Virus record (IMG/VR): IMGVR_UViG_3300030708_003584
Location: 1-36,032 of that record
Reading direction: 5' to 3' (one strand)
DNA length: 36,032 bases
Source: a virus
Taxonomy: Duplodnaviria > Caudoviricetes
Made by a program: the position numbers and the translations under genes. Positions 362 to 36,032 of the stretch are shown here, in pieces; positions within the stretch are counted from its first letter, which is position 1; each line of letters opens with the position of its first letter. The notes beneath the pieces were generated by a model that saw nothing but the letters and a program-made list of their open reading frames with translations, had not been told where the DNA came from and did not search any database.

Positions 362-1327
362 TTAATGAATCCCGATCAATACAGGAACATCTTGCATACG
401 ATCACTCGCGCAAGCTGGTTCACCACTTGGCAAACAATCGCCACAATCACCGGGGCAAGAGAATACGCGGTTGCCATATTCCGCGCGGCCGATGTCCCTT
501 ACTTCTTTGTGATACTGCTTGTCTTGATATCGGGAATTGTCACCATACTCATTTTCTAATTCAACCGCGCCGAAAATGCCGCGCGTAAATGGCAAGCTTT
601 CGACTATGCGGCGCAATTCATTATGATCATGGGATGGCGTATCATACCGCGAGCCGCTCGACATATTTAACGTGTAGTTGCGCGGCATGGGTACGGTTGC
701 CCCGTATGCCGGATTCATGAATACAGATTCATCATACGTTGCAAGTAACCGCCACGACTTTGAATAACCATAAGCAGTTATGTCCGGTCGATCGTTTAAC
801 AATTCCCACCATAGCGCCATCGTTTTATGACTATCAAAGTCACCATCCACATACAACCGCAGCATAATATCAAAGTCTAATTCCATGAACGCGCGGCGAA
901 TTGCGTCAGGGTTCTGTTGTATCAAAATGGTATTGAGTACTTGTCGACAAAATGCCGCAGGGTATCGCCATGCCTTAAGTGAATAACACCATTCACCACA
1001 TTCCCCATATCCGGGGCAAGTAAATAAGGGCAATGTGCTAAAGTTCTTATAGGGCAATTTTGAATTGCCGGTTGTGAAAATGCTAAAGCCCTTATATTCG
1101 GTTACATAGTCGCGATAGTGGCGCAGTGCATTAGATAAGCTTTTCAGATAATACCCCCACGAGCTTTTTTTTCGGATTCCGCCAATGCGCCGCGCCTCTT
1201 GATGCGCGATATCCGCCGCGACATTGAATCCGCCATTGTCATCAAATCGCCGATTTTCAAAGGGCGATAGAATACGCTCGATAAAATTCATACAACGTTG
1301 ACGATTCATTTTGCTACTTTTAGCCAT
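362..1327 (-). CDS. Phage gene product 88 (GP88)-like, radical-SAM-like Cys-cluster protein
   Basis: GNSKL...TCPGYGECGEWCY, RLYVDGDF, YGYSK and C-terminal CPGDCGDC motifs typical of the GP88 family; RBS AAAGGTG. Confidence 0.75.
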   Translation of the reverse strand: MAKSSKMNRQRCMNFIERILSPFENRRFDDNGGFNVAADIAHQEARRIGGIRKKSSWGYYLKSLSNALRHYRDYVTEYKGFSIFTTGNSKLPYKNFSTLPLFTCPGYGECGEWCYSLKAWRYPAAFCRQVLNTILIQQNPDAIRRAFMELDFDIMLRLYVDGDFDSHKTMALWWELLNDRPDITAYGYSKSWRLLATYDESVFMNPAYGATVPMPRNYTLNMSSGSRYDTPSHDHNELRRIVESLPFTRGIFGAVELENEYGDNSRYQDKQYHKEVRDIGRAEYGNRVFSCPGDCGDCLPSGEPACASDRMQDVPVLIGIH

Positions 1328-1363
1328 AGTTACACCTTTAATAGAATAGTAGTTGACATGCTT

Positions 1364-1392
1364 ATCCTATCGGTACACCGATAATAAATCAA
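1364..1392 (-). promoter_or_regulatory. Sigma70-type promoter with palindromic operator
   Basis: Minus strand TTGATT-17bp-TAGGAT; operator TATCGG-N4-CCGATA at 1368-1383. Confidence 0.7.
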
Positions 1393-1472
1393 CAGACTAT
1401 TCCACCATCGGCAATAGTACGCGGCAATTGTGCGCGGATATGTCGCGGCATTTTGCCGCGCGGCATGGTATC

Positions 1473-2037: not shown

Positions 2038-2337
2038 TCACACGAGAAGGGTGATTAGTTGTTGCACTTCTTCCCATGGCAAAATCAATTCCGCAGCACC
2101 GTTAAACGCACTGATGTGAATCGGCTGAAAATCGGTGTTTTCAAAAAACCATTTTTGCTCGGCGTAATCTAAATTACGACCCCACGTGATGTACACGTCC
2201 TCGCCATCCTCGGTTACACATTCGCCTATGTCCGCACATCCTAGCGCGAGAAAACTTGGAACAGATCCAAGCCGCCGCTCGCTATCAGGTTTAGCGCACA
2301 CTGTGCATTCATATAATTGATCTAAGTATTCAGACAT
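2038..2337 (-). CDS. Hypothetical protein (CxxC near N-terminus), first gene of cassette 2
   Basis: ATG at 2337 after leader AGAGGTGCAAACG. Confidence 0.7.
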   Translation of the reverse strand: MSEYLDQLYECTVCAKPDSERRLGSVPSFLALGCADIGECVTEDGEDVYITWGRNLDYAEQKWFFENTDFQPIHISAFNGAAELILPWEEVQQLITLLV

Positions 2338-2340
2338 CGT

Positions 2341-2600
2341 TTGCACCTCTTAAGAAAAATGTAGTTGACTCATTTAAATATATCGGCACACCGATAGGAA
2401 ATCAATAGCTTTGCACCACAATATGATTTAACCGCGAGATATCATGTGCCGCGCGGCATGCGATCACAATGAGACACCCCCAGAATGGCCGCGTGTCAGA
2501 ATGGCCGCTGTGCCAACCTGGCAGGATCGCAATTCCTGTCCAGATCTCTGACAGATTTTCGCCCGCATACGCGAAAGTGCGTTCAAAAATCATGAGCTCG
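2341..2600 (-). repeat. Early promoter cassette repeat, copy 2
   Basis: Same blocks as copies 1 and 3; internal CAGAATGGCCGC duplication. Confidence 0.9.
2377..2405 (-). promoter_or_regulatory. Sigma70-type promoter with palindromic operator
   Basis: Minus strand TTGATT-17bp-TATATT; operator TATCGG-N4-CCGATA at 2381-2396. Confidence 0.75.
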
Positions 2601-2847: not shown

Positions 2848-2860
2848 GTTGCACCTTTTA

Positions 2861-4682: not shown

Positions 4683-4707
4683 TTTTTGCACCTTTATGAG
4701 AAGTTAG

Positions 4708-5130
4708 TTAGCTGGTGAGAGTGGCTCGTGATTTTTTCATTCCCAGATCAACGCACCGACCAAGTTTCATAGGTTGTAGGTTGTCACGATACTGGCTGTT
4801 TTTTAGTTGGCCGTCTGGGACAGTAACCCAGACTAACCGCTTACGCGGTTGATAGTGATAAAATCGAACCGAGGTTACCTCGACCCATTCATCCACGGTG
4901 GAGAGATCCGTCATCACTTTGCACATTGAGACGGGGGAACGGAATTCAAATTTCTGACCTTCCCCAGTTGCTTTAAATAGTTTGTGAAGATCTTCTATAG
5001 CTTCGCTATGAATTTGATGGCGGATGGCGTGATCAATTCCTCTGGTGAGATTTTCTATAGCTCTTGAGTCGGTAAGTCCGTGCTCGCGGCTTAGTTCTAG
5101 TACTTCGTTTTTAAATAGTTCGTAGCTCAT
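4708..5130 (-). CDS. Hypothetical protein, first gene of cassette 3
   Basis: ATG at 5130 after AGAGGTGCAAACG. Confidence 0.7.
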   Translation of the reverse strand: MSYELFKNEVLELSREHGLTDSRAIENLTRGIDHAIRHQIHSEAIEDLHKLFKATGEGQKFEFRSPVSMCKVMTDLSTVDEWVEVTSVRFYHYQPRKRLVWVTVPDGQLKNSQYRDNLQPMKLGRCVDLGMKKSRATLTS

Positions 5131-5132
5131 CG

Positions 5133-5412
5133 TTTGCACCTCTTAAGAATTTTGTAGTTGACATGTTCATTATATCGGCACACCGATAATGTGTCAAGAG
5201 GGTAAATATTTTTTTTGCATGCACGATGGTGCATCGCCACGCTTTTCGGTACACATTTCGGCCATGTGAGGTGTTATCAAAACGACCACCCGCCGCCTTG
5301 GGGGTGTGTCAACATGGCCGATTTGCCAGAGTGGCAGGATTGCGAAAGTTGCTCAGATCTCTAATAGATTTTCGCGCGTAGGCACGAAAGTGCGTTCAAA
5401 AATCATGAGCTC
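5133..5412 (-). repeat. Early promoter cassette repeat, copy 3
   Basis: Same blocks as copies 1 and 2. Confidence 0.9.
5169..5197 (-). promoter_or_regulatory. Consensus sigma70 promoter with palindromic operator
   Basis: Minus strand TTGACA-cattatcggtgtgccga(17)-TATAAT; operator TATCGG-N4-CCGATA at 5173-5188. Confidence 0.9.
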
Positions 5413-7131: not shown

Positions 7132-7196
7132 GAGGTATTTCCTTTCAAAATATCATTATAAAATGCTTAGCAACGACGTTTAATTGTGATAAACGG

Positions 7197-10863: not shown

Positions 10864-10874
10864 CTTAATAGTTC

Positions 10875-14365: not shown

Positions 14366-14370
14366 ATGAC

Positions 14371-15849: not shown

Positions 15850-15865
15850 TTACGCCCCTACCTTT

Positions 15866-16300
15866 CTAGCTAATTGTCGTCCATGCCGGTGCGGTTGCGT
15901 TGTACGCCGTATTGAGCGTTACATCGACCGTCATAGCCTCTTCTAAGTTTTCATTGATGTTAAAGCCAGTGATGGTGAAATAAGCTTCTAAGCCTTGTGT
16001 ACCGCTGACAGTGCGATCACCATCCATAATCTGAAGTTGCAGATCAGTGTTATTCATGAATGCGTCTTTTACGGCTGCGAAATCGTCTTGAGCCGTATCG
16101 TAGACCATTGAAAAACTCACGTTGCCGTCTTTCAGCGTGGCCACAGATTGTCGCCATCCATTTCCACCTCGGGTTGTGATATCTGCCGTAGCTTTTTCCA
16201 AATTCAATGAAAGGTCTTTTACGTTCGTCATTTCATTCCAGCTGGAAGCGCTACTGTCGTAGCGATACATTTTCGCGTTCAATCCTAAGACGTATGCCAT
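15866..16300 (-). CDS. Major tail (tube) protein
   Basis: NVKDLSLNLEKATADITTRGGNGW...ENLEEAMTVDVTL. Confidence 0.8.
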   Translation of the reverse strand: MAYVLGLNAKMYRYDSSASSWNEMTNVKDLSLNLEKATADITTRGGNGWRQSVATLKDGNVSFSMVYDTAQDDFAAVKDAFMNNTDLQLQIMDGDRTVSGTQGLEAYFTITGFNINENLEEAMTVDVTLNTAYNATAPAWTTIS

Positions 16301-16318
16301 TGTGGAATTCCTTTTCTA

Positions 16319-16744
16319 TTATTTGATGGTTAAATACGTGACGGTGATGATTGAAAGAAACTCGTTTCGATCAGCGAGTGCCTCCAGATCAAATGCCTGC
16401 TCGTTCTGAATGCTGCTGTAAGAACAATCAGCAAGAGATTTAAGAGCAAGCGCGTCGGCAACTTGTTCTGAAAAATACAGGTGTGTTGAAATATCAGGAT
16501 CAGCGGCTGGGCTCACCGGCACACGCACAACAACATTGAGTGTGTAGATGAACTGCTGGCTATCGCGGCTCGCTATCGCGGTTTGCGTTCCTTGCGGAAA
16601 CACACTGACCTGAGCACCAGTCAGTTCTTCACGTTCAAAGTCAGGGAGGTAAGTTCTAGATGCTGTGAACGACATCGATAGCGATTGGCTCGACAGGTGC
16701 GTAACAACTGCGTCACAAAGCGTCGTGATAGTCGCATCAGGCAT
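16319..16744 (-). CDS. Tail terminator-like protein
   Basis: Size and synteny (head-tail connector then tail tube). Confidence 0.55.
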   Translation of the reverse strand: MPDATITTLCDAVVTHLSSQSLSMSFTASRTYLPDFEREELTGAQVSVFPQGTQTAIASRDSQQFIYTLNVVVRVPVSPAADPDISTHLYFSEQVADALALKSLADCSYSSIQNEQAFDLEALADRNEFLSIITVTYLTIK

Positions 16745-17109
16745 TACTTAGTCCACTTGGTATGAACGCGAATAATCTTCCGAAAGGGATCGGAGTATTT
16801 GAAATACCGACCGCTCCCGGCGTTAGTCACCGGATAGGTTTGCTGCTGGCCGTTGACCGTTTCTGTTATGGTGTCGCCGCGATCAGGCAAAACCGGCTGA
16901 CCCCCGATGGTCAGGTCGGAGGCGGGGAACACGAAGTCCCTCGCCTCGACCGTTTCCATGTAGCCATCGCCGTCCGCCGAGACAAACTCGGTATCACTTG
17001 GAATAGCCGTGAGGGTAATGTTTACATCACCGCGTGCGTACGTAATCTGTACGCCTGCTGTGTTCTGCAACAGCTTAAAGTTCTGCGCAATCGTGTCGGC
17101 AAGAGCCAT
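16744..17109 (-). CDS. Head-tail joining protein (gpFII-like)
   Basis: Follows the capsid gene; LPDRGDTI...RVHTK. Confidence 0.6.
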   Translation of the reverse strand: MALADTIAQNFKLLQNTAGVQITYARGDVNITLTAIPSDTEFVSADGDGYMETVEARDFVFPASDLTIGGQPVLPDRGDTITETVNGQQQTYPVTNAGSGRYFKYSDPFRKIIRVHTKWTK

Positions 17110-18023
17110 TAACTAACGATCGCCTCCGTGCTGCTGATTTGATCCGTGACGATAATCGGCACGCCGAATGCAGATTCTGGGAATGGTGCTGGAGCGCCAG
17201 TAGCGTTCGTGGCTGTCCTAGAATTCTGCAATTGTTTGAGCGACCGTCGATTGACTGCGATCATGTTAGGTCCACGACCGGCAGGGAATTTGCTCAACGC
17301 ATCAGCGATCAGGTCATCGGTGAGTCCTTTTCCGCTGTCCTCAGTGAGGTTGCAGATTCGGCCAGCCGAGTAAGCTGAACCGTAGATCAAGCCGACGTAT
17401 CCGGTCACTGCTGTGTAGTAACTCGGGAACGTACCTGAAGCAGCAGCGGATCTTACGATAGTAGTATCTTTCGCTTCGATTACGCCTTGATTGCCCCACG
17501 CAACCTGCACGTCGTTGAAGCCACTGCGGATAAAATATGCGGAGCTTGCTGTGTCAGCTGTGCTCCCTCCCGCATCAACTACCATCGCATCGCTCGCACC
17601 ATCGAGCTCTTCGCTTAGTGAGGCAAAGCCATCGGACGCGCCACCATTGATGAGTTCATTCTCGATTTTTGCCATCATCGCTTGCATGTGATTTTGCATT
17701 TGCAGAGCAATGAAAGCCGCAGGACCAAGGCGGTAGCCTTCTGCAGCGGCGATATCGATGTTGAAACTGGCATCTGCGATAGCGAGATCCACGCTCACTT
17801 GCGTATATGTCGCCACGTCATTGTCCACGCCCGCGTTGAGAGCTCTGAAGCCCACTACTGGGTCGGCAGATTTTTTGACGTATTTTAATTGCGTACCGTC
17901 AACGCTAAATGCGCTGAGGGCACTTAAAACCGGAGCGTCATTAAGAACGTCGGAGACGTCAAAACTTAGATCCGACTCATTAAAGGTGATTAAATTCGCA
18001 CTTGTGTAATAATCATCAGCCAT
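17109..18023 (-). CDS. Major capsid protein
   Basis: 304 aa after the protease; GFRALNAG...FGVPIIVTDQI; RBS GAGGT. Confidence 0.82.
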   Translation of the reverse strand: MADDYYTSANLITFNESDLSFDVSDVLNDAPVLSALSAFSVDGTQLKYVKKSADPVVGFRALNAGVDNDVATYTQVSVDLAIADASFNIDIAAAEGYRLGPAAFIALQMQNHMQAMMAKIENELINGGASDGFASLSEELDGASDAMVVDAGGSTADTASSAYFIRSGFNDVQVAWGNQGVIEAKDTTIVRSAAASGTFPSYYTAVTGYVGLIYGSAYSAGRICNLTEDSGKGLTDDLIADALSKFPAGRGPNMIAVNRRSLKQLQNSRTATNATGAPAPFPESAFGVPIIVTDQISSTEAIVS

Positions 18024-18043
18024 GATGCTTTACCTCTTTCGTG

Positions 18044-19135
18044 TTATCGGGATAGTTGTTGTTCGATGCGAGCAGCTTGCGTTGCGACGAAGTCGCTACC
18101 GACACCGGCCTTCTTAAGCTCTTTAGCACGCAAACTGAGTTCGTCGTCTTCCTTCGGAAGCGCATCTGGGTGACTGAAAGAAACAGGCGTTTCTTCGCCA
18201 CGGTCGATTGCTCTCAGCTGAGACACTTCGTTCTCAAGTAATTCCGTTCGCGCGACGAGCGACGAGATATGAAGCTCGTAGCACTCTTCGATAGATTTGC
18301 CTTCTACAAACCAGACAGCACCCTGATCACCAAAAAGTTCGATGTAGCGCTGTCCGCTCGATTGTGAAAGCTGAACATCAGCGTTCTCAGGGGCGTCCTG
18401 CTCTTCGAGAGCCTCGGCTACTTCTTGCGTTTCGGTTTCAACAGGAGCGGCATCGTCTGAGATGACTTCTTCAACCGCTTGCTCGGTAGCTTCAGCTTCA
18501 ATAGCTTCTTCTGCCACAGCCACGGATTGTTGGTCGTCAGACATATTCGTCTCCATTTCAAAAAAATCGACAAGGATGTTGTTGCCCTCTTCAGACAACA
18601 CGATAGATTCGGTTTCCCCGTCCGCGCCGTACGGAGTTATTGCCACGCCACGCAATGGCCAAGATCGGATGATGGTTGCAGGTCCACTGAATTCGCGGCT
18701 GTTCACAGTCACAGTCTCGCCGTCAGGAACGCTTTCAACCTTGATGCCGTCACCGCCAAAATTGATGCTGGCTTGCCACGGAATACCGGCTTTGCTTTTG
18801 CGAGCGATGTCAGATGCCCGGTCATCGTCGCTGAAGCTGACCAACTTGCCTGTCGCCAGCAATCCTTCCGGTGTGTTTTCAAAGTTATCGAGGTATCCGA
18901 TCACCTCGCTTGTGTCGTGATTGAAATCAATCGGGATCTTGGCCGACACGTTCATTCCGGCAATGTCGTGAACTGTTTGTTGTCCCCAATACCAGTGCTC
19001 GATTGCCCCGGCACTGCGAGCTAATAGTGACACCTCATATTCGGTCGCTGGCGAATCCGTAGATTGCGGATCGCTAACGCTGATCTCGCCACTGCTAAAT
19101 CTCAGTGCATTAGCTGTTACTTCGCGCTTTGTCAT
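18044..19135 (-). CDS. Prohead protease with C-terminal scaffold region
   Basis: IDFNHD...VIG...GIPWQASI...GAD; acidic C-terminal half; in-frame internal GGAG-6nt-ATG at 18544. Confidence 0.75.
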   Translation of the reverse strand: MTKREVTANALRFSSGEISVSDPQSTDSPATEYEVSLLARSAGAIEHWYWGQQTVHDIAGMNVSAKIPIDFNHDTSEVIGYLDNFENTPEGLLATGKLVSFSDDDRASDIARKSKAGIPWQASINFGGDGIKVESVPDGETVTVNSREFSGPATIIRSWPLRGVAITPYGADGETESIVLSEEGNNILVDFFEMETNMSDDQQSVAVAEEAIEAEATEQAVEEVISDDAAPVETETQEVAEALEEQDAPENADVQLSQSSGQRYIELFGDQGAVWFVEGKSIEECYELHISSLVARTELLENEVSQLRAIDRGEETPVSFSHPDALPKEDDELSLRAKELKKAGVGSDFVATQAARIEQQLSR

Positions 19136-20565
19136 AACTCTTCCTCGTCTTCAACAATTTCAATTGCTTGCCGTTGTATTTCGTTACCGGCCTCATCCGC
19201 GTCGAGTGGGACGCCTGCCATATCCACGATGATTCCTGCGTCGGCCATGTACTGTTGCTCATCGCGTAGCTGATCAACGACGTCGCGGAATTCTTTTCCA
19301 TGTCGTTCACGAACGACCATCGACCGGCTCTTCAGTCCAGAATTGATTGCGGCGATATCTGCGTTGATCTCTTGAAGTGGATTCCACCAAGGCGTACCGT
19401 CGGCGACCCATTCCCAGTTCAGGTCGCCCAACGTCATTCGCCCGGGCAGACGTAATGTGCCGTCAGCGATGAAGAGCTTCATCCGCCAGCCAGTGATATG
19501 GTTAAGGAGCTCAGAAAGCTGTTGCTGTTTAACTTTGCATGCTTTTTCGTAATGAATAAAAGCTGAACGGCTGCCAAAGAAGTTTGTGTAGCCCTCGTCA
19601 AAAAAACTGTACGGAATATCGACGCTTTTAAGACTTAGCGATATCATTTGCTGAGAGAAATTCTGAAACTCATTCGATGGGTTTCGTGATTCAATGATCG
19701 ATGCTTCGTCACCCGGATCGAGGTCGAGCATCACTGGGCCTTTTCCAAAGTCGACTTTGTAGCCGCCGGTGACGTCGTCATCTTTTGTGACATCCGAAAA
19801 ACCACCAGCGTTCTCACGGGAGAGAACCAGCCCAAACATTTGACTGACTTTGAGCTTTGCTAATGCGTAGTCGTAAGATTCGTAGCAATCTCGGAGCGTG
19901 TTGATAGCTGGAGCAAGTGGCGAGACACCGCGCACCTGGTCAAAGCGTTGAAAATATCCGAGGTGATATACATTCTTCGATGGAACAGATCGTTCAAAAT
20001 CATACCCGCCGGTCTTGTCGCGACGCCAGATAGCCACCCGTTGGCTGCGACCACCGCGGTTCACCTGAATACCGTGAACCCAGTCTTCGTCAGTGATCTT
20101 TTCCGGGTCGCGTACACGGTCGCTCTCGATCGCTTGCAGTTGACCGTTAGAAAGCTTGATAAAGAAGCAGTCGCCATCCACTAACCGGCGTTCTTCAGCC
20201 ATGCGGATTAGGCTGCTGAGGTTATGTCGACCTGTCACGTCGCAGTTGTATGGCCGTCCAAACCATTCCATTAAGGCTCGCAGTTCGGCATCAAGACTTT
20301 TGTCTCCGGTTTTTGGTTCAAAGCTGAATCGTGACACGTAGTCGAGATGCCGACGAATGGCCCATGCGGCTACTGCGAAGTTCCTCTGTAAATCCCTCGC
20401 TGCTGCGGTGAGGCGTTTGCGTTTCACCGGCGAGAGGATCTGATCGGTGCTTTTTAGCCGTGTCGTGGGGCTAAAGCGACGGTCGCTCGTTTGAGCGCCG
20501 TCGTATTCAAAATTTGTATGCAGGCCGGTTAACCGTCGAGCCGCGTTAGCTATCATCGAGAGCAT
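19132..20565 (-). CDS. Portal protein, lambda family
   Basis: ARDLQRN...DGDCF...QVRGVSPLAP...PWWNPLQE. Confidence 0.92.
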   Translation of the reverse strand: MLSMIANAARRLTGLHTNFEYDGAQTSDRRFSPTTRLKSTDQILSPVKRKRLTAAARDLQRNFAVAAWAIRRHLDYVSRFSFEPKTGDKSLDAELRALMEWFGRPYNCDVTGRHNLSSLIRMAEERRLVDGDCFFIKLSNGQLQAIESDRVRDPEKITDEDWVHGIQVNRGGRSQRVAIWRRDKTGGYDFERSVPSKNVYHLGYFQRFDQVRGVSPLAPAINTLRDCYESYDYALAKLKVSQMFGLVLSRENAGGFSDVTKDDDVTGGYKVDFGKGPVMLDLDPGDEASIIESRNPSNEFQNFSQQMISLSLKSVDIPYSFFDEGYTNFFGSRSAFIHYEKACKVKQQQLSELLNHITGWRMKLFIADGTLRLPGRMTLGDLNWEWVADGTPWWNPLQEINADIAAINSGLKSRSMVVRERHGKEFRDVVDQLRDEQQYMADAGIIVDMAGVPLDADEAGNEIQRQAIEIVEDEEEL

Positions 20566-20806
20566 TTGACAACTTTATTGTTGGGGCAAGCGGACGAGTG
20601 CCGTCGGCACGGGCAACTTTTCGTTGCCAGTAATCCAGTTCTTTGAGAAGTTGTGTTCTGTTTACTTCGACCGTCGTGCCATCGATGGTGGTTTGAACAA
20701 CGCCGCCACTGCCAGCAAGAATGTCTGCTTGGAGCTTGGTGACCATTTGCTGCGCGAAGGTTGGCGTACTGGCCGCGGCGTCGGTTCGTGTAATATTAGT
20801 AGGCAT
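20546..20806 (-). CDS. gpW-like head completion protein
   Basis: Small ORF directly upstream of the portal; TIDGTTV...LDYWQRKVAR. Confidence 0.65.
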   Translation of the reverse strand: MPTNITRTDAAASTPTFAQQMVTKLQADILAGSGGVVQTTIDGTTVEVNRTQLLKELDYWQRKVARADGTRPLAPTIKLSNALDDS

Positions 20807-21335: not shown

Positions 21336-22835
21336 TTATCCTAATAATCTCTGTGTTTCAATCGCGAGATTTATGTCCTGACGCATCTTGGAGTAATGCG
21401 TGACCATCGAGTCTGTTAAATGCCCCATCACAGCCTGCGCCGCCGAACGACTCGCGTTTGCGACCAAATTGGCAGAGTAAAAATGCCTGATGGCAGAGGG
21501 GAAAAATGTAGGAATGGAAAAGTGGTTCAGCACATCATAAAGGTCAGTGCGATACGCCTTCGTATCGTACCTATCCATGACGGTCGTGTGTTTCTCGTAG
21601 ATCTCTCGCACGCTGCGAACCGGCAACGGTTCTAAAATTCCTGCGCGTATCAATGTGTATTCGCAGCGTTCGCCAGTTTTCTCGCGAAAAAGCGTCTTCT
21701 CAATTTCAAAAGCTCTATCTCTCAACTGCCTGATGGCCGCGCCTCGCTTATCGCGGTTTACGATCACATCATCTAGCGATATCTGCTGGCCAAGATGCTG
21801 TTCCAGACGGGCGGCTATTAATCGGGCATTACGAAGTTTATCTTGCTGCGGTTTCGCAAAACTGAGTCGATACGCTTCTGCGACGCGGCGGCTAAATACA
21901 AACCCGCTGTCCGCGGTAATCATTTCGTCGCGATGTTTTTTCAGTGCCTCGACGCTGTGTGGGCCAAGGACGGTAATCAGCGTAAGGTGCTTCTCTGTTT
22001 TGTGCGAACTAGGTCGATAGATCCAAACTCCGTGCTCATCTTCATCACTTGTATCAATATCTTCCCAACGCATGTTGCAGATGTTACCAGGTCGAAGCCC
22101 CGTGTGCATTTGCACAGTGAGCATCGTCGCGAGAACCGGCGGTGAGAGTTTAATCGCTTCAAGTAGATCCGCTTCGTCCGGTGCGTGTACGACTTTACTT
22201 GCTGGAACGTCATGGTCAAAGTTGCCAAGAGGTTTCAGTGCGTTGATCGCGAGAAATACGTGATCAGGAAATATTCCTTCCTCCGCCCCCCAAGAAAACA
22301 TACGTTTGAGCACACTAATCTTTTCGTTTATCGTTTTGCGGCAGTTGCCAGTCATGTCAATTTCAATTTGCCGAGCACGCTTGAGGTCGGCGAGAGTAAA
22401 TTCTGCGGCAGGTTTTTCTGCAAACGGCATCAACATCAAACATGCGCGGCGGAGCAGCGTGATCTGTGCGCGGTCTGCTTTAGACTCATCAGGTAGGCCA
22501 TGCCTGCGGCGTTTATCGTGCCATGTGCGATATCGCTCTACCAGATCAACTACTCGAAAACTCTGTTCTTGTGGCTGATGCGCGGGCATCTCGGAATTAG
22601 TCACTACCGGCGGGGAAGCCACCTGATCAATGCCAAGCTCAATGCGCAGTTGCTGTAAGTCATCATACATTTCTCTGCTATATGGATCGCCACTTAGATA
22701 GATAAAAGGGTAACTCTCGTTACCGCTGTCATCGACCATCTTTGGTCGTACATAGGGTCGACCTCGGTCAGCCTTCACTTTGACAATGAGCTTCGTACCG
22801 GCAAATGTTTTGCCGAGAATCTGTTTACGAATCAT
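21336..22835 (-). CDS. int: Tyrosine recombinase (phage integrase)
   Basis: TGLRPG (R), SHKT (K), SAIRH (R), MGH...HY (H,Y); SAM-like core-binding domain; ATG at 22835 after GAAGGTGCA. Confidence 0.92.
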   Translation of the reverse strand: MIRKQILGKTFAGTKLIVKVKADRGRPYVRPKMVDDSGNESYPFIYLSGDPYSREMYDDLQQLRIELGIDQVASPPVVTNSEMPAHQPQEQSFRVVDLVERYRTWHDKRRRHGLPDESKADRAQITLLRRACLMLMPFAEKPAAEFTLADLKRARQIEIDMTGNCRKTINEKISVLKRMFSWGAEEGIFPDHVFLAINALKPLGNFDHDVPASKVVHAPDEADLLEAIKLSPPVLATMLTVQMHTGLRPGNICNMRWEDIDTSDEDEHGVWIYRPSSHKTEKHLTLITVLGPHSVEALKKHRDEMITADSGFVFSRRVAEAYRLSFAKPQQDKLRNARLIAARLEQHLGQQISLDDVIVNRDKRGAAIRQLRDRAFEIEKTLFREKTGERCEYTLIRAGILEPLPVRSVREIYEKHTTVMDRYDTKAYRTDLYDVLNHFSIPTFFPSAIRHFYSANLVANASRSAAQAVMGHLTDSMVTHYSKMRQDINLAIETQRLLG

Positions 22836-22929
22836 GATATGCACCTTCTATATTTGAACGCGCGTAAACGCGCGGAAACCAGAGTATACCAGCGGTAATC
22901 GGCAAGACAAGTGTTTACTGTTTAAGAAA

Positions 22930-22946
22930 TTGTGCACCGTGCACAA
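22930..22946. repeat. Putative integrase arm-type sites (left)
   Basis: TTGTGCAC-c-GTGCACAA, same motif as 23196-23225. Confidence 0.65.
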
Positions 22947-23035
22947 AAATAGATCAGTTAAAACGTCCGCCCCGTGGCTGAAAATGCCTGTGTTTAGAGT
23001 GTTTAAGCACGCTGAGAGATGCGTGTGTATGAGAC

Positions 23036-23076
23036 GGTTATGAGCCTCGCGAGCTACCGGGCTGCTCCACCCCGCG
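23036..23076 (-). tRNA. 5' half of tRNA-fMet(CAT); putative attP identity block (not a full tRNA)
   Basis: CGCGGGGTGGAGCAGCCCGGTAGCTCGCGAGGCTCATAACC, then divergence with no T-arm; lies between arm repeats next to int. Confidence 0.85.
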
Positions 23077-23094
23077 ATGTTGTTTCGTTCGGTA

Positions 23095-23123
23095 ATTATA
23101 GTCTCAAACCTCTGTTTTGCTAG
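23095..23123 (-). promoter_or_regulatory. Promoter upstream of the tRNA fragment and int
   Basis: Minus strand CTAGCA-17bp-TATAAT, ~18 nt before the tRNA 5' end. Confidence 0.5.
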
Positions 23124-23195
23124 GGGGTGTGATTGGTTTAAGTTGGTGTACCAAAGACCCATTAAAACCCGTTGTATTTCAATCGCGCCCAATTT

Positions 23196-23225
23196 TTGTG
23201 CACAATTGTGCACAAATGTGCACAA
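23196..23225. repeat. Putative integrase arm-type sites (right), 3 x 10 bp
   Basis: TTGTGCACAA TTGTGCACAA ATGTGCACAA. Confidence 0.75.
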
Positions 23226-23245
23226 TTCAAAAACGAGGAGTGAAA

Positions 23246-23506
23246 TCACCCATCCACCCCGCGGCTGTCACGGACGTGCTTACCGAGCCTGTGTTCAAGC
23301 AAGCTCTCCCTGATCGCAGTTGTGAAACTTTGAACACGCCGCATCCCTTCAACAAAGTTGCGGTGGTTCGCAACCGGGAGCTCCTCGATCTGGAGTGTCT
23401 CTAATTCTTCCACACACACTTTGAGATCGACGAGCATCTTCTCTAGCTCAACTGTAGCCTCGCGAAAGGCTTGGATCTCAAGCACCGTTAAGTTCTTCTG
23501 CGGCAT
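23246..23506 (-). CDS. Hypothetical protein in the repressor position (no obvious HTH)
   Basis: RBS GAAGGG; divergent from the xis operon. Confidence 0.6.
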   Translation of the reverse strand: MPQKNLTVLEIQAFREATVELEKMLVDLKVCVEELETLQIEELPVANHRNFVEGMRRVQSFTTAIRESLLEHRLGKHVRDSRGVDG

Positions 23507-29314: not shown

Positions 29315-29360
29315 ATCGTAAAAATGGTTGCCATCTGCTCGTGAATAAGAACAATAATTA

Positions 29361-29437
29361 GCGTAGTTGAACTACGAACAACCGAACATTACCTGTCGAA
29401 CGGGCTATCTCTTAACGAGGTCGCCCGTTTTTTTTTG
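29361..29437 (+). ncRNA. Short leader/sRNA ending in a strong terminator
   Basis: CGTAGT-tga-ACTACG hairpin, then AACGGGC..GCCCGTT stem with T9, directly upstream of the late gene block. Confidence 0.5.
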
Positions 29438-29451
29438 AATTGGGAGAACCT

Positions 29452-29895
29452 ATGAGCGGCACAACTGACCGTGGCAAATATCTATTACTAAAGTATGCGT
29501 TCGACGGAGAAACTGTCCCGACCACCTACCGACTCATTCTTTGCACCGACGATGATACGCCTACCAAAGCAAGTAACACTTTGGCCGACGTCACCGAGAT
29601 AGCCTCTGGGTCAGGCTACGATTCCGGTGGCAAGGAACTCGCGACGTCAGATGCGACTGTCACGGAAGTTGACGGTACGATCGGTGCGAAAGTTGTTTTC
29701 AGCGATCAAACTTGGTCTGCCACTGGTACGTTTCCATCGAGCGGAACAGGTGCGAGATGGGCTGTCATCACGGACGGGACGAGCTCAAGCGATAATATCC
29801 TTGCTTACTTTAGCTTAGGGAGTAACCAGACTCTCACGAGCGGACAATCACTTACGCTTCAATCTGTAGAAATAGATTGCAATGAACCTAGTTAG
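29452..29895 (+). CDS. Virion structural protein (tail-fibre-associated type)
   Basis: EIASGSGYDSGG...DQTWSATG...LAYFSLGSNQTL; RBS GGGAG. Confidence 0.65.
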   Translation: MSGTTDRGKYLLLKYAFDGETVPTTYRLILCTDDDTPTKASNTLADVTEIASGSGYDSGGKELATSDATVTEVDGTIGAKVVFSDQTWSATGTFPSSGTGARWAVITDGTSSSDNILAYFSLGSNQTLTSGQSLTLQSVEIDCNEPS

Positions 29896-29903
29896 GAGTT
29901 GCC

Positions 29904-30677
29904 GTGGAGCTTCTGCTGAAGGTCGGTGATAGTGAATCGCCCGTAGGGTATAGGGATGGAGATATCGTGTGCGCGTTTGCGACCGATCACATCCTGAAGG
30001 TGAACGCGCAGACGATAATGTCTGCGCCGGTCGAATTAGATTCAGTTTCCGGCCTCAATCCATCGGGAACACTTCTCGAACTGGTGTGTGAGATCTCTAG
30101 TGAGTTTAGGTTCGTTCGTGACGCGGACACCGTGACGCGGACGAGCCTGGCCACTGGTGAGCAGACAGTTCACGACGCCACTACGCCTGAGTCGATTCAT
30201 GTAGATGCGTTTTTAAAACGTCGACTAAAACATCCTCGCCACAGAATCTTTGGTGATACAGGAAGCGAATATTGGTTCGGCGGTAAACGCGAGTTTTCAG
30301 CTGCGGATATATGGTCGTTATTAGAGCAGCACTCTGATCACGTCCGCGATGATTACCGGCAGTGGCCGTTTACGTGTGCGGAGCGATCGCATTTTCTTCC
30401 GATCTCCTGTTCTGGCTACGGAGGACACGAAGACGACATTTCTCATCACACCGCACAGCTACGATGTGCGCCGGTCACCGAAGATACCGGGACGCCTGAA
30501 CCGATTGATATTGCGAAGCGCGAATGGTTCGTGCCGTACTGGGATCTCTCAAATACTCTCAACCTCACGGTCGACGATGTACGCGATAACGAGCGGATTA
30601 TCGATGCAAGGCTGATGCAAGGGAGTCCGGCGTTAGATAGCACAAACATTAGCAAAGTCGTAAACGGTCTGATTTAA
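29904..30677 (+). CDS. Hypothetical protein
   Basis: AGGAG RBS plus GTG; 257 aa. Confidence 0.7.
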   Translation: MELLLKVGDSESPVGYRDGDIVCAFATDHILKVNAQTIMSAPVELDSVSGLNPSGTLLELVCEISSEFRFVRDADTVTRTSLATGEQTVHDATTPESIHVDAFLKRRLKHPRHRIFGDTGSEYWFGGKREFSAADIWSLLEQHSDHVRDDYRQWPFTCAERSHFLPISCSGYGGHEDDISHHTAQLRCAPVTEDTGTPEPIDIAKREWFVPYWDLSNTLNLTVDDVRDNERIIDARLMQGSPALDSTNISKVVNGLI

Positions 30678-30679
30678 AA

Positions 30680-32821
30680 ATGGCAACCGTCACTACAAGC
30701 ATTGGAACAAATAGCTCGCTTGGGACTGCAACTCCTAGCGGTTGCAGCGGCTCTGGTCCGTGGGATGTGACAATTTCACTGAGCCCACATAACGTGAGCG
30801 TCGGTGACACTGCAAAGATTACGGATTATACGCAGGGTGATTTTTACTACTTAATCACGGAGATCTCAGGGACTACCTGGACCTTTAAGTACATCAGCGG
30901 GGGCATGGGATCAACCAGTCCTTGTACGCTACAAAACATGTCTTATGGTCAGGCCAGCGCCACTTTCCAGCGTACGTACTCGACTATCAGTGCTTGGGAA
31001 AGTGACCTAGATGACACAAGTTATTATTCTTCCGGCGATGACGCGGTAGGGGAAGCTTACAACGACTCAGTCTTCGATGAATATATAGTGATCGCCAGCG
31101 GCGGCACGGTTGGTCTCTCTTCCGTAACATTAACTGCGCCTTCATCCGAGAGGCATGATGGAAAGGCTGGCACTGGGACGAGGATTGAATACACAGGAAA
31201 CCAAGGCAGTTCATTTCGTATTCGTCGAAGTCAGTGTACCGTAGAATGGCTTGAACTTGATCTCACAAGTACAAACTCAGCGGTGTCGACTGGATTAAAC
31301 TTTGGAACAAATTCAACGCAAGAAGTTTATGCCCGGAACAACATAATTCACGGTTTGACGACGCAAACTGTGCATATACACGGCGTATACATCTGGGGCA
31401 CAGGTAACTCGTCAAACAGTCGTTATTTGATGAATAATCTCATTTACAATCTGGACAACTCTTCCAGTAGTAAATCCGCCTCGGGCGTCACTGTATCGAG
31501 CGGAAACTGGAACGTCTATCTGTATAACAATACTGTCTACAACATAAAATCTACTGCGGTCGGTGACGATGCTTTCTGTTTCTCGATTCATGATACCGAT
31601 ACTTACATTAAAAATAACATCGCAGCACGACCGAGTGCCTGGCATTCCAGTTATCAAAAATGTTTTGCCGAATCCGGTTTTTCTGGGTCTACGCACGATT
31701 ACAACCTATCAACAGATTCAACTGCGACGGGAACAAACTCGTTAACAGGCGAGGACTATGAAGATCTGTTTGTCTCTGTAACGGGCGGGACGGAAGATTT
31801 GCACCTGGAGGAAGGTGCGGCTGCTATCGATGCGGGTACTGATCTCGGGACATCACCCACAGGCGTAAATATAGATATCGACGGTTTTAACCGGGACACG
31901 GTGGCTTCGTGGGACATTGGGGCTGATGAGTATGTGTCGAGTGCAATCAATATCACCCCAGCCTCGGCTGAGTGCGTATTTGCCGCGGATCTCACAGTAA
32001 CGATTGAAAAGTTCGTTACACCCGATGCCGCCGCATGCGTGTTGGCAGCTTCTATTGACAATGTTGGTAAAGCTATTGCGCCAGACGCCGCAGCATGTGT
32101 ATTTGCCGCGGATCTCGCAGTCACGATTGATAAGGTGGTTACGCCCGATGCCGCAGCATGTGTATTCGCCGCGGATCTCACAGTCACGGTCGATAAGGTA
32201 GTCTCACCTGCCGCAGCAGTGGCTGACGTAGCCGCAGTTGATCCAACCGTCTTTATTGAAAAGTTCGTTACACCCGATGCCGCCGCATGCGTGTTGGCGG
32301 CTGTTATTGATAATGTTGATAAAGGTATTGCACCAGACGCCGCTGAGTGTGTATTTGCCGCGGATCTCACAGTAACGATTGAGAAGGTCGTTACACCAGA
32401 CGCCGCTGAATGTGTATTCGCCGCGGATCTCACAGTAACGATTGAAAAATTCGTTACACCCGATGTCGCAGTTGCTGATTTATCCGCAGTCGATCCAACC
32501 GTCTCGATCACGGGTGGCGGCACGACAGTGTCACCCGCCTCCGCAGTGGCTACTCTCGCTGCAACCGATCCGACCACAATCATTGACACGGTACTCACAG
32601 CCACAGCATCCTTCAACTTGGCTGCTCAGTCTCCGACCGTTGTGGTGAGTGGTAACACAACGATTACGCCATCAGCAGCTACCGTTCTTCTCGGAGCATC
32701 GCTTGGGGCAGTGAACCCGGCAGGCTTAATCTACGTCAGCGATCCACAAATCAACGCACCATTCATCAGCGGTGCACGAATCGATGTACCGAATATATTC
32801 AAGCCACGACTCGAGAGGTAA
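30680..32821 (+). CDS. Fibre/spike-like protein: parallel beta-helix domain plus tandem ~21-22-aa repeats
   Basis: NNIIH/NNLIY/NNTVY/NNIA beta-helix ladder, DLHL..AAIDAG..DIGADEY, then PDAA(A/E)CVFAADLTVTIEK repeats. Confidence 0.7.
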   Translation: MATVTTSIGTNSSLGTATPSGCSGSGPWDVTISLSPHNVSVGDTAKITDYTQGDFYYLITEISGTTWTFKYISGGMGSTSPCTLQNMSYGQASATFQRTYSTISAWESDLDDTSYYSSGDDAVGEAYNDSVFDEYIVIASGGTVGLSSVTLTAPSSERHDGKAGTGTRIEYTGNQGSSFRIRRSQCTVEWLELDLTSTNSAVSTGLNFGTNSTQEVYARNNIIHGLTTQTVHIHGVYIWGTGNSSNSRYLMNNLIYNLDNSSSSKSASGVTVSSGNWNVYLYNNTVYNIKSTAVGDDAFCFSIHDTDTYIKNNIAARPSAWHSSYQKCFAESGFSGSTHDYNLSTDSTATGTNSLTGEDYEDLFVSVTGGTEDLHLEEGAAAIDAGTDLGTSPTGVNIDIDGFNRDTVASWDIGADEYVSSAINITPASAECVFAADLTVTIEKFVTPDAAACVLAASIDNVGKAIAPDAAACVFAADLAVTIDKVVTPDAAACVFAADLTVTVDKVVSPAAAVADVAAVDPTVFIEKFVTPDAAACVLAAVIDNVDKGIAPDAAECVFAADLTVTIEKVVTPDAAECVFAADLTVTIEKFVTPDVAVADLSAVDPTVSITGGGTTVSPASAVATLAATDPTTIIDTVLTATASFNLAAQSPTVVVSGNTTITPSAATVLLGASLGAVNPAGLIYVSDPQINAPFISGARIDVPNIFKPRLER
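31951..32520 (+). repeat. Intragenic tandem repeats of ~63-66 bp
   Basis: Near-identical GCCGCGGATCTCACAGT..ACGATTGA.AA units; about 9 protein repeats. Confidence 0.85.
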
Positions 32822-32824
32822 ACC

Positions 32825-33457
32825 ATGTCAACCGCTTTAAAAAATTCGTCTGGGGAATACATCACTATTGAAAGTGGTGAGTCATGCAATCTGACCGGCA
32901 CGCTCAAGAGCACCGAGGGTGAAACAGTTAGCAGCGTGAGCTCACTAACAATCACGCTCTACGATAAATCCAGTGGCACTATCATAAACAGCCGAAACAG
33001 CCAAAACGTGAATAACGTGAACGGAGGTACATTCTCCGCAGGCGTGTATACGATCGAGCTCGATGGCGCAGACACTGAGGCAGTCGGTGAGGTTGCAGAC
33101 GGTAGCAGCCAAGAACGAATTGCTCGGATCGAGTGGGGTTATAGCGACGGCGATTCGACACGCACTGGAATCGAAGAATTCAGTTTTCTGGTGCACAAGA
33201 TGGTTACAGCGATAGGGGTAGGCACAGGTGCAAATCAAATAACGCTGACAGTAACGGATAGCTCATCAAATCCAGTTGCGGAAGCAACCGTTCATGTGAG
33301 TACCGATCTTGCTGGTCAACAGATAGTGGCTGGCCCAGTCTTTACAAATGTATCAGGCGTGACGCCCACGCTTTATTTAGACACAGGCGAATATTATTCG
33401 TGGAGCTCGCACACCGACTATAGCTTTACGAATCCGAGCAAGTTTACAGTTAGCTAA
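32825..33457 (+). CDS. Ig-like virion protein
   Basis: ITLTVTDSSSNPVAEATV (carboxypeptidase-regulatory-like pattern); RBS GAGGT. Confidence 0.6.
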   Translation: MSTALKNSSGEYITIESGESCNLTGTLKSTEGETVSSVSSLTITLYDKSSGTIINSRNSQNVNNVNGGTFSAGVYTIELDGADTEAVGEVADGSSQERIARIEWGYSDGDSTRTGIEEFSFLVHKMVTAIGVGTGANQITLTVTDSSSNPVAEATVHVSTDLAGQQIVAGPVFTNVSGVTPTLYLDTGEYYSWSSHTDYSFTNPSKFTVS

Positions 33458-33501
33458 GGGGTGAGCTAATTTCTACAGCGTATGAATCACATCGCGAGAC
33501 G

Positions 33502-35538
33502 ATGCGGTCGCGTACGGCTGCACAGAGTCAGTCCGGGCGTGACATCGCACCCCTTCCACGCATCCGCAGTGGTACGCGAAAAAAGGCGTGTTCGCTCAAC
33601 TTCCGAAAGTTCTGCGAGACGTATTTCTCCGGCACGTTTCATCTCGACTGGAGCGACGACCACCTGAAGGTGATTGAAAAAATAGAGCACGCTTGTTTGA
33701 AAGGTGGCCTGTTTGCGTTGGCGATGCCGCGGGGATCAGGAAAAACGAGCCTTTGTGAGACGGCGGCATTGTGGGCAATCCTCTACGGCCATCGTAAGAG
33801 TGTCGTGTTAATTGGGGCGTCTGAGGATGCGGGTGCGATGATGCTCGACAGTGTTAAAGCGGAAATCGAGATGAACGAACTGCTAGCCGCTGATTTTCCA
33901 GAGGTGTGTCACCCGATAGAAAAGCTCGATGGCATTGTCAACCGCACAGCGGGTCAGTTGTACAAAGGCAACCGCACGCACATCACCTGGACCGCAAAAA
34001 AAATAGTGCTGCCAACGATACCAAAGTCCCACGCCAGTGGCGCGGTTTGCCTCGCACTGGGTATCACAGGAAGGATACGTGGACTAAAGCACAAGCTTCC
34101 AACCGGCGAAGCTGTCCGACCGGATTTCGTTATCGTAGATGATCCACAAACGGATGAGTCTGCACGGAGTCCAAGTCAGTCGGCCACGCGGGAAAATATA
34201 CTGGCGACGGCCATCCTCGGACTCGCTGGTCCAGGTAAAAAGATGTCTGGTTTTATGCCGTGCACGATCATCAGGCCAAATGACATGGCAGCGAGCATTT
34301 TGGATCGGGACAAGCACCCTGAGTGGCAGGGTGAGACAACGCAGATGGTCTACAAGTGGCCTGTCAACGACGCATTGTGGAATGAGTATGCAGAAATCAG
34401 GCAGGAGGATCTCAAAGCCGACGGTGATGGCTCGCGGGCAACGAAGTTTTATTCTAAGAATCGAAAGAAGATGGACGAAGGTTCAGTTGTTGCTTGGGAG
34501 TCACGATATAACGATGACGAGCTCTCAGCACTCCAGCATGCCTTCAACCTACGGATTAGGGATGAGAACGCTTTTTTCTCAGAGTACCAAAATCTGCCAA
34601 TGGTCGATGAAGAGACTGCTGATCTTTTGACGGTAGACGAGATTTGCCAAAAAGTTAATGGGTACAAGAAGCTCGAAATCGCTAACGATGTTGAACGCAT
34701 AACTACGTTTATTGATATACAACAGAAGTGCCTGTTTTATGTCACAACCGCATGGACGATGGGATTCACGGGGTACGTTATCGACTATGGTGCGTACCCG
34801 GATCAACAGCGACGATATTACAGTTTGCGGGATATTTCAAAAACGCTACAGCGAGCGAAGCCCGGAGCGGGGCTTGAAGGCGCTATATTCGCGGGGTTGC
34901 AAAACCTAACAAATCATATTCATGAGTCAGTCTATCTACGCGATGACGGGGCGGAGATGACTAACGACCTGACGCTGATCGATGCAAACTGGGGTACGTC
35001 GACCGACATCGTCCACCAGTTTTGCAGAAATACTAACCATCGCGGTCGCATCATGCCTGCACACGGTAGGTATGTCGGTGCGAGTAGCAGAAGTTTCAGC
35101 GACTACGCCAAACGCAAAGGCGAGCGAGTTGGATACAACTGGCGTATGCCGACGGTGAAGGGGAAGCGGGTTGTTCGTCACGTTCTGTTTGATTCAAACT
35201 TCTGGAAGTCATTCGTACACGCAAGACTTTCACAATCCCTTGGAGATCCCGGCTGTTTGAGTCTTTTTAAAGCGAAGCCATCAACGCATCAGATGCTCGC
35301 AGATCATTGCCACGCTGAGTATCGAATCAAAACGACTGGACGAGGCCGTGAGGTAGATGAGTGGAAGCTGCTACCCAACAAGCCAGATAACCACTTTCTT
35401 GACTGCCTGTCAGGATCAGCCGTCGCAGCGAGCGTCACCGGCTGTAACTTAAGCGGGATAAATAATCGAAGCGCCGAAGATCTGGCGATGCAAGGCGAAA
35501 CAAAACGCACACGACGGCAACGGGTTACGTACCTTTAA
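33502..35538 (+). CDS. terL: Terminase large subunit, GpA-type
   Basis: Walker A AMPRGSGKT, Walker B VIVDDPQ, nuclease IDIQ...IDANWG...DNHFLDC; true start may be ATT at 33469. Confidence 0.92.
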   Translation: MRSRTAAQSQSGRDIAPLPRIRSGTRKKACSLNFRKFCETYFSGTFHLDWSDDHLKVIEKIEHACLKGGLFALAMPRGSGKTSLCETAALWAILYGHRKSVVLIGASEDAGAMMLDSVKAEIEMNELLAADFPEVCHPIEKLDGIVNRTAGQLYKGNRTHITWTAKKIVLPTIPKSHASGAVCLALGITGRIRGLKHKLPTGEAVRPDFVIVDDPQTDESARSPSQSATRENILATAILGLAGPGKKMSGFMPCTIIRPNDMAASILDRDKHPEWQGETTQMVYKWPVNDALWNEYAEIRQEDLKADGDGSRATKFYSKNRKKMDEGSVVAWESRYNDDELSALQHAFNLRIRDENAFFSEYQNLPMVDEETADLLTVDEICQKVNGYKKLEIANDVERITTFIDIQQKCLFYVTTAWTMGFTGYVIDYGAYPDQQRRYYSLRDISKTLQRAKPGAGLEGAIFAGLQNLTNHIHESVYLRDDGAEMTNDLTLIDANWGTSTDIVHQFCRNTNHRGRIMPAHGRYVGASSRSFSDYAKRKGERVGYNWRMPTVKGKRVVRHVLFDSNFWKSFVHARLSQSLGDPGCLSLFKAKPSTHQMLADHCHAEYRIKTTGRGREVDEWKLLPNKPDNHFLDCLSGSAVAASVTGCNLSGINNRSAEDLAMQGETKRTRRQRVTYL

Positions 35539-35554
35539 AAAAAAGGATTTTGCA

Positions 35555-35812
35555 ATGGCTAAAAAGAAGGCTGTGAAACGTGGACGACCGAAAGGGAGTC
35601 GAAACAGAGACGTAGATGTGGTGGAAGTGATTGAAAGTAGATGCACCAAGTGTGGTTCGGGCGAGCGGGAGAATTACATCAATAAGCGGACGCTGACCTT
35701 GAGCGGACGGACGATGGACGGTAGGTTATACACGTCGGTCACATGGCGACGCACGCGATGCCTCAAGTGCGGACAATGGCGCGACGATAAAACATATGAT
35801 GACCGTGGATAA
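35555..35812 (+). CDS. AT-hook plus Zn-finger protein (Ogr/Delta-like late regulator candidate)
   Basis: KRGRPKGSRN; CTKCGS...RRTRCLKCGQ. Confidence 0.65.
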   Translation: MAKKKAVKRGRPKGSRNRDVDVVEVIESRCTKCGSGERENYINKRTLTLSGRTMDGRLYTSVTWRRTRCLKCGQWRDDKTYDDRG

Positions 35813-35816
35813 TACA

Positions 35817-35890
35817 AATCGAGCGTAGTTGACATATGTCTCGATTCTGCGGCGGGGAGTTCGATGCACCTTTCTCCCCGCCGCTCTTTT
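35817..35890 (+). ncRNA. Putative two-hairpin antisense sRNA, doubling as the terL operon terminator
   Basis: Hairpin 1 AATCGAG..CTCGATT presenting GTAGTTGACAT; hairpin 2 GCGGCGGGGAG-ttcgatgcaccttt-CTCCCCGCCGC followed by TCTTTT. Confidence 0.6.
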
Positions 35891-36032
35891 AACTGGCTGG
35901 TTTGCTGGCCACTCTAAGTGACTCTCTGATCGTAAACCCCTGTAAACTAAGGCTTTAACGTGTGTACCGTTCCGGCCACTGCACGCCCAAGACCCACTGG
36001 TGCATAAATAAAGTCTACAGTACAGTCTACTA

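Follow-up and report, generated by a model that had tools for sequence, protein, structure and literature searches.

The DNA analysed here, referred to below as the window, is a stretch of 36,032 bases that makes up the record of a whole virus and is a complete 36-kb temperate phage. PHROG and Pfam scans identified a tyrosine integrase on the minus strand, with the head and tail genes downstream of it, and a plus-strand run that leads from an excisionase-like gene through recT and replication genes to a gpA-type terL and a zinc-ribbon gene. The landmarks outside the left arm are:

21336..22835, minus strand: tyrosine integrase (int), 499 aa
23036..23076, minus strand: attP-like piece; the 5' part of one Pirellulales tRNA gene has the identical sequence
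29396..29438, plus strand: terminator-like hairpin before the operon 29440-35812
35555..35812, plus strand: zinc-ribbon gene, 85 aa, last open reading frame of the terL operon

The host is probably a member of the Pirellulales, as inferred from the 41-nt tRNA-like match of the attP-like piece and from a terL scan that located relatives mainly in planctomycete genomes. The match was present in three of the four planctomycete genomes tested and exact in one Pirellulales genome; the tRNA is one that we take to be Met-type. Sequencing runs containing the phage DNA are labelled marine, except one with a coded organism, and a metagenome scan yielded two near-identical phages. No RNA run occurs among the sequencing runs listed as matching the phage, which has no bearing on expression. 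The zinc-ribbon protein was without a match among INPHARED phages, and its possible NrdR-like Zn-ribbon nature is a lead only. The head and tail genes of the window (5400-20806) are separated from terL (33502-35812), and in many planctomycete prophage loci terL, the zinc-ribbon gene and the head genes stand in a single run.

Two adjacent hairpins follow the terL operon, the first beginning 4 nt after the zinc-ribbon stop codon:

35817..35846, plus strand: hairpin 1, the 5' hairpin (stem AATCGAG 35817-23 / CTCGATT 35840-46)
35825..35835, plus strand: seed A', GTAGTTGACAT, complement of the first nucleotides of three cassette transcripts
35849..35890, plus strand: hairpin 2, intrinsic-terminator-like (11-bp GC stem, 14-nt loop, U tail)
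35864..35873, plus strand: seed B', ATGCACCTTT, an anti-RBS within the terminator loop

A first-pass annotation of this DNA, made from its letters alone, had described these hairpins, and all of its coordinates check, including the perfect 11-bp stem of hairpin 2 (35849-59 / 35874-84), the loop at 35860-73 and the TCTTTT that follows. The structure it marked also folds well, with -35.6 kcal/mol for 35812-35892 (z -5.76) and none of 200 shuffles as good. A promoter/terminator consensus scan of 35400-36032, in which terminator loops were restricted to 3-8 nt, returned no promoter and no terminator. The RNA is placed on the plus strand because the U tail lies on that strand in all four lineages described below and because the stem of one of them (L002) contains a G-U pair, which would become A-C on the opposite strand. 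In strain contigs from four runs, none of the 33 changed places of 35300-36032 falls inside 35744-35911, a result that is weak alone since non-coding 35891-36032 has only four changed places. Directly 3' of the terminator are short tandem repeats in variable number (window 35891-35910, L001 6665-6740, L003 12415-12465), with a 12-mer unit in the relative G001 and a 10-11-mer unit in G003.

The sequences complementary to the two seeds lie mostly in the left arm of the phage. The left 5.4 kb contains three minus-strand cassettes, each with a sigma-70-type promoter and a short leader, and the P3 promoter is perfect (TTGACA-17-TATAAT). The relevant features are:

1325..1395, minus strand: cassette promoter P1 (palindrome 1368-83; box A 1349-59; box B variant 1331-39; ATG 1327)
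2335..2405, minus strand: cassette promoter P2 (palindrome 2381-96; box A 2361-69; box B 2342-49; ATG 2337)
2850..2858, minus strand: box B of the internal gene starting at 2847
4687..4695, minus strand: box B of the internal gene starting at 4682
5128..5197, minus strand: cassette promoter P3 (palindrome 5173-88; box A 5154-64; box B 5135-42; ATG 5130)
22839..22847, minus strand: integrase RBS, AAGGTGCAT, a 9-nt complement of seed B' (ATG 22835)

All three cassette promoters carry the palindrome TATCGG-N4-CCGATA between -35 and -10, and a 69-aa XRE-type HTH protein, encoded at 2861-3070 in the P3 operon by a gene without box B, is a candidate for binding it. The gene at ATG 1327 belongs to the GP88 family. 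A 137-nt repeat lies upstream of each cassette promoter (1471-1607, 2463-2599, 5276-5412), with a terminator-like hairpin in at least one copy. Strain contigs show genes joined and exchanged at these repeats and at the promoters, so that the left end is a shuffled cassette array. As a structured RNA the repeat was rejected (compensatory changes at none of 34 pairs). In one such strain cassette, found in run X9 at a loose end before window position 5154, the gene is a different one, box A is retained, box B is identical to that of the integrase, and the spacer differs.

The first-pass annotation had placed a shared RBS box before six genes, and the pattern [AG]AGGTG[ACT]A-N2-7-ATG indeed precedes six real open reading frames, all on the minus strand: those starting at 1327, 2337, 2847, 4682 and 5130 in the cassettes, and the integrase at 22835. 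The sole plus-strand match stands before a 3-codon frame, and in the window no replication gene or other plus-strand gene carries the box. The match to the window's own loop is only 8-9 nt long; among 531 candidate starts the best targets rank 5-7, with a few unrelated candidate starts outscoring them. Among the 48 annotated genes the six targets rank 1, 2, 3, 5, 6 and 10, and rank 4 is recT. Whole-RNA cofolding gains only -0.5 to -5.6 kcal/mol, loop kissing being outside that model. In five host-group genomes the box-B motif occurs seven times, as compared to six in the reversed control, and some of the matches precede real-looking genes; the word is a usable but rare host RBS.

Viral contig scans yielded one complete close relative, G001, with 91% nucleotide identity over the terL region, and fragments of three further lineages with terL identities of 77-83% (G003, G004 and L002). 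With G001 grouped with the window, there are four close lineages. In all of them, a small hairpin starting at most 10 nt after the zinc-ribbon stop is followed by a large-loop GC stem of 10-11 bp and a U tail. The loop measures 14 nt in the window and G001, 17 nt in G004, 18 nt in G003 and 22 nt in L002, so that a pyrimidine-rich loop of 14-22 nt is kept in four of four lineages on a freely changing stem, in which 7 of 10 predicted pairs show a double change (four-row alignment, imperfect register). Between the window and G001 the RNA differs at 0 of 78 positions and the preceding gene at 24 of 258; the cassette genes of G001 are largely different, yet six of them again carry box B. Long-loop terminators are otherwise rare. 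Only 11 distinct ones were found in 242 sequences (3.08 Mb, redundant), of which three are this RNA, the G003 copy having been missed owing to a bulge; apart from a self-match and an A-rich run, the scan of all 242 added no loop/RBS pair.

In the collections searched, the element was found in these four lineages only. Two more distant complete relatives have neither a tyrosine integrase nor a hairpin after the zinc-ribbon gene. The terL scans added 77 viral and 80 genome loci at 51-60% identity, and in part of the first 35 viral loci the head genes mostly follow the zinc-ribbon gene directly, without a hairpin. The 401 Pirellulales genomes contain 13 zinc-ribbon loci in 12 genomes; a long-loop scan found the RNA in none of these loci, and a close integrase occurs in none of the 401. 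The cassette arms of the three lineages other than the window's were not found by left-arm protein and tail alignment searches.

In G004, the only exact complements of at least 9 nt to the loop in 18.5 kb are two 12-mers, both at RBSs, one belonging to int and the other to the gene that opens the int operon; they rank 1 and 2 of 209 candidate starts. The opening gene is the first of two extra genes between the attP piece and int (L215 3995-4650). In G003, the phage's own int start ranks first of 200 candidate starts with 10 bp including one G-U; an exact 9-nt complement of the loop is lacking from the G003 int leader, and the loop pairs with the G004 sites as well as, or better than, with the G003 one. 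Near its predicted +1 the same leader (L124 14545-14575) contains GGTACAA, which complements the G003 loop over 7 nt in addition to the RBS. Six bases are inserted in the L002 loop, and their complement is inserted in the int RBSs of contigs L211 and L213, giving matches of 13 nt (L211) and 12 nt (L213), with an A-C mismatch beyond the 13-nt match; the int start ranks 1 of 95 in L211 and 2 of 122 in L213. The L002 contig is without int and this covariation is read across different contigs. Because L002 and L213 are the closest by overlap, we read them as one lineage: L213 is the nearest to L002 (74% nucleotide identity over 800 nt), and their RuvC-like segments share 89% of amino acids as compared to 58-61% for the others.

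A cross-table of loops and RBSs separates two loop/RBS types. The L002 loop reaches -20/-19 kcal/mol on the RBSs of its own lineage and -6.1 to -11.5 on the others, whereas the three other loops reach -11.8 to -21.7 on their own type and -9.5 to -13.0 on L211/L213. Shuffled loops did as well in 7, 2, 1 and 1 of 3000 cases. Since the integrases are only 30-46% identical between lineages, the target sites have been kept against deep divergence. Seed and target change together in one mirrored 6-nt insertion, read across contigs of one lineage, and in one change from G-C to G-U; the insertion is the one clear covariation event. The covariation proposed as a check between loop seeds and leader boxes in related phages was seen, in that one event, for loop 2 and the integrase RBS; seed A' is missing from the three other lineages. 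The core proposal of a trans-antisense RNA gains from the loop in all four lineages, the first-ranked int of G003 and G004 and the mirrored insertion, which argue for it at the sequence level; its second seed does not generalize.

That second seed is real in the window but restricted to its lineage. Exact GTAGTTGAC occurs four times in the window, always on the plus strand: at 1349, 2361 and 5154 in the three leaders and at 35825 in hairpin 1, as the complementarity to box A noted earlier would have it. With at most one mismatch there are 16 matches against 6.6 +/- 2.4 expected, a number reached by 0 of 100 shuffles. When both strands were divided into 72,004 windows of 30 nt, complementarity of at least 9 nt to all three promoter leaders was found, apart from the leaders themselves, at hairpin 1 alone. 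Both seeds had been assigned to loops, which holds for seed B' and in part for seed A': only GUUGACA, 7 of its 11 nt, is in the predicted loop, and GUA is in a weak inner helix. When the RNA is cofolded with the three promoter leaders, A' pairs and B' does not. A single colinear duplex of A and B was rejected, as A' is 5' of B' in the RNA and A is 5' of B in the mRNAs.

The two-seed design stands for the window's lineage, where seed A' is present in the window and G001 (one G001 cassette being without box A), and does not extend to G003, G004 and L002, which have a C(UUCG)G hairpin without box A' in place of hairpin 1. In this lineage hairpin 1 has probably acquired an additional seed, directed at the 5' ends of the three cassette mRNAs, that would make a loop contact of its own. 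A search of viral contigs for the DNA pattern A'-gap-B' gave 38 stretches, with the two-hairpin fold only in the close relative and the others chance-like. Four copies of the GTAGTTGAC 9-mer form the -35 region of forward promoters in G011, an integrase-less relative (2420, 3688, 4747 and 20118, with near-palindromes AACTRTAGTT on both sides), which indicates that the seed A' word can arise as a DNA element. In the window, seed A' was rejected as the -35 of a plus-strand promoter, there being no -10 at 16-18 nt. A palindrome CGTAGT-TGA-ACTACG at 29360-29375, just 5' of the terminator preceding the terL operon and with one arm base changed in G001, has 11 nt in common with hairpin 1.

Two promoters had been suggested for the RNA. 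TATGAT at 35795 was discarded, as it reads TATGAC in the 91%-identical G001. The other is a weak candidate in the window and G001 that is not found in all lineages:

35808..35813, plus strand: GATAAT, weak candidate -10 (with ACGATA, 8 of 12), not common to all lineages

ACGATA-18-GATAAT occurs only in the window and G001, with TACAAT at the same distance in G003; a -10-like hexamer 9-10 nt before hairpin 1 is thus found in three of five genomes, and G004 and L002 have no such promoter. No sigma-70-like promoter before the RNA is common to the four lineages. Because no promoter is conserved, a late RNA derived from the 3'UTR is likelier than an immunity RNA, and immunity is the weaker role since no replication or other plus-strand gene carries the box; between the lysogenic immunity and the late shut-off that had both been offered, the evidence favours the latter. 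The terminator-like hairpin before 29440-35812, seen in the window, G001, L002 and G009 (G003 and G004 have another gene there), hints that this operon, which has the RNA at its 3' end, is controlled separately and late.

The feature is real. Most likely it is an antisense RNA that acts in trans and forms part of a terminator, conserved among a small family of temperate planctomycete phages. Our main reading, to which we give a probability of about 0.6, is that the terL-operon terminator doubles as a trans antisense RNA predicted to block int and cassette translation. Transcription of the terL operon, probably in the late lytic phase, would cause an RNA of some 75 nt (35813-35890) to accumulate; it would be either the unprocessed 3' end of the mRNA or a fragment cut from that end and shielded by hairpin 1. 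The terminator loop would pair over 9-13 nt with the Shine-Dalgarno region of the int and cassette mRNAs and block translation initiation on int and five cassette genes, keeping Int and the strongly promoted early cassette products off after commitment to lysis. Pairing would be chaperone-independent. PF17209 (Hfq) was found in none of five host-group genomes of unstated completeness as compared to 5 of 14 controls, a result consistent with loop-initiated pairing. That pairing is the function of the loop we hold to be highly probable; the timing is less secure. The structure, the complementarity, the restriction to six minus-strand genes, the conservation and the mirrored insertion are read directly from sequence, and from them we infer synthesis, timing and repression.

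Alternatively, the RNA could be made in the lysogen from a weak promoter of its own in the zinc-ribbon gene and, in the manner of C4, keep int and the cassettes silent in the prophage or in a superinfecting relative. The ACGATA-18-GATAAT of the window and G001 and the TACAAT of G003 would serve this purpose; no helix-turn-helix repressor is present at the usual divergent position, which is occupied by an 86-aa gene without a convincing family, and lineage-specific seeds could yield immunity types, as reported for C4 (PMC5320573). We nevertheless consider it unlikely, as the promoter is missing from G004 and L002, the cassette promoters already have a palindromic operator-like site, and with no boxed plus-strand replication gene the replication of an incoming phage would stay unblocked.

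It is improbable that the shared words are protein sites, whether because a translational regulator binds AAAGGUGCA and a minus-strand hairpin transcript acts as its decoy, or because A and B are DNA sites. The hairpin folds almost as well on the minus strand, GTAGTTGAC is part of the four G011 promoters, an 11-nt copy of the hairpin-1 word lies within the palindrome 29360-75, and some E. coli sRNA terminator loops act without target pairing, according to PMC11979758. Against this, the U tail and the G-U pair point to the plus strand. In the G003 loop a C has become U, which leaves pairing intact (as G-U) although the motif is no longer identical, and six bases inserted in both loop and RBS are expected from pairing and would be poorly tolerated by a protein site.

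Highly improbable, in our view, is an ordinary terminator whose pyrimidine loop matches purine-rich RBSs by chance, like any anti-Shine-Dalgarno. The window's matches of just 8-9 nt, the resemblance of the loop to the 16S 3' end of the host group and the use of the RBS word by a few host genes would fit; however, no more than 7 of 3000 shuffled loops of equal composition do as well, the same RBS sites give only -7.7 to -11.5 with the host anti-SD, and the match singles out int in three other lineages and follows a 6-nt insertion. Barely credible is a reverse control, in which the leaders of int and the cassettes capture the nascent loop and lower termination, with readthrough over the genome end into a long antisense RNA on the cassettes: in G004 and G001 the matches do extend 1-2 bases into the 3' arm of the stem, and P4 CI RNA controls termination via pairing (PMC4825925), but GC stems of 10-11 bp are far too stable for such an overlap to undo and the partner words lie exactly on RBSs, fitting translational control.

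The antisense RNA favoured here has likenesses among known systems without belonging to any of them. The C4 RNA of P1/P7, as described in PMC5320573, is about 77 nt long, is processed from a longer transcript and has two loops, with b' pairing partly over the RBS and a' upstream, and the c4 motif is listed for Proteobacteria and phages in PMC2864571. The same division of labour, an RBS loop and an upstream loop, is seen in the RNA of the window and G001 and is absent from the three other lineages. However, C4 (RF01695) is an RNase P substrate with three stem-loops (P1-P3, P1 being the enclosing stem), whereas the phage RNA consists of two tandem hairpins with a terminator in four lineages; it sits inside its target operon, whereas the phage RNA is encoded at least 13 kb away from its targets on the map, or on the other side of the genome end; and it targets an antirepressor operon, whereas the phage RNA matches int and accessory cassettes. 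RNase P processes C4 at a GGW 5' end, and hairpin 1 starts AAUCG. P4 CI RNA is likewise processed and pairs with two separate sequences (PMC4825925). It terminates its own operon early via the flanking seqA/seqC, whereas the six sites of the phage RNA are RBSs of opposite-strand operons. Rfam scans of the window, L215, L124 and L002 gave 0 matches to RF01695 at E <= 1 and none to P4 CI, and with structure, place and targets all differing, the element belongs to neither family, in line with the earlier remark that it does not look related to them.

Closer in the use of a terminator loop as a seed on a translation start are two chromosomal stress RNAs: E. coli OxyS, whose terminator loop binds the translation initiation region of fhlA while a second loop makes a separate kissing contact (PMC11979758), and Listeria LhrC, whose loops bind the SD of lapB (PMC4132741). 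Both differ in having their own promoters, no sequence relation and no phage lifestyle control. In Streptomyces coelicolor, the approximately 90-nt s-SodF is processed from a 3'UTR, like the likely origin of the phage RNA, and pairs another mRNA from its 5' end to the RBS (PMC3919588). It has one target with one 19-nt perfect match, whereas the phage RNA has short loop seeds and six targets. By its predicted exposed seed and remote targets, the two-hairpin RNA would fit the class of trans-acting base-pairing sRNAs.

Retroregulation of int by lambda sib relies on a cis structure on the int mRNA that is cut by RNase III. The outcome is the one proposed here, Int kept low in lytic growth via RNA, whereas the phage element would act in trans from another operon. 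In the literature covered, with few subscription papers, neither this RNA nor any phage RNA acting in trans on an integrase RBS was found to be described. The word 'integrase' is absent from the main text of a 2025 phage sRNA review (PMC12197685), and the part of PMC7067206 available presents no comparable case. The motif was not found in the part of the supplement of a virus structured-RNA survey that was covered, and may be listed in the rest (PMC10690425).

If the main reading is true, this would be a trans-acting phage RNA controlling integrase, a target not met among described phage sRNAs, and a rare case in which seed and targets visibly change together from sequence alone. It provides a first concrete regulatory hypothesis for planctomycete temperate phages, with natural orthogonal loop/RBS pairs directly testable by reporters, and it suggests a screen in which genomes are searched for long-loop terminators with a loop matching RBSs of their own. 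A wider and tentative reading, possible though we would not lean on it, is that a family of planctomycete temperate phages with no recognisable CI at the usual position uses the terL-operon terminator as a programmable anti-RBS switch that forms a main part of the lysis-lysogeny decision, with all silenced genes (int and the freely exchanged cassette genes) tagged by a private RBS word and loop and tag co-evolving into lineage-specific codes.

Several smaller features accompany these elements. The 86-aa gene (23246-23506), at the immunity-repressor position, was absent from the 401 phylum genomes searched and is kept in G003 and G004 (35% in G004). In the P3 operon, two genes meet at a 39-nt tandem duplication (3724-3801). 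The tRNA piece is flanked by repeated TGTGCACA words (22930-23230), which are likely integrase arm sites, and each lineage has a different word of this kind.
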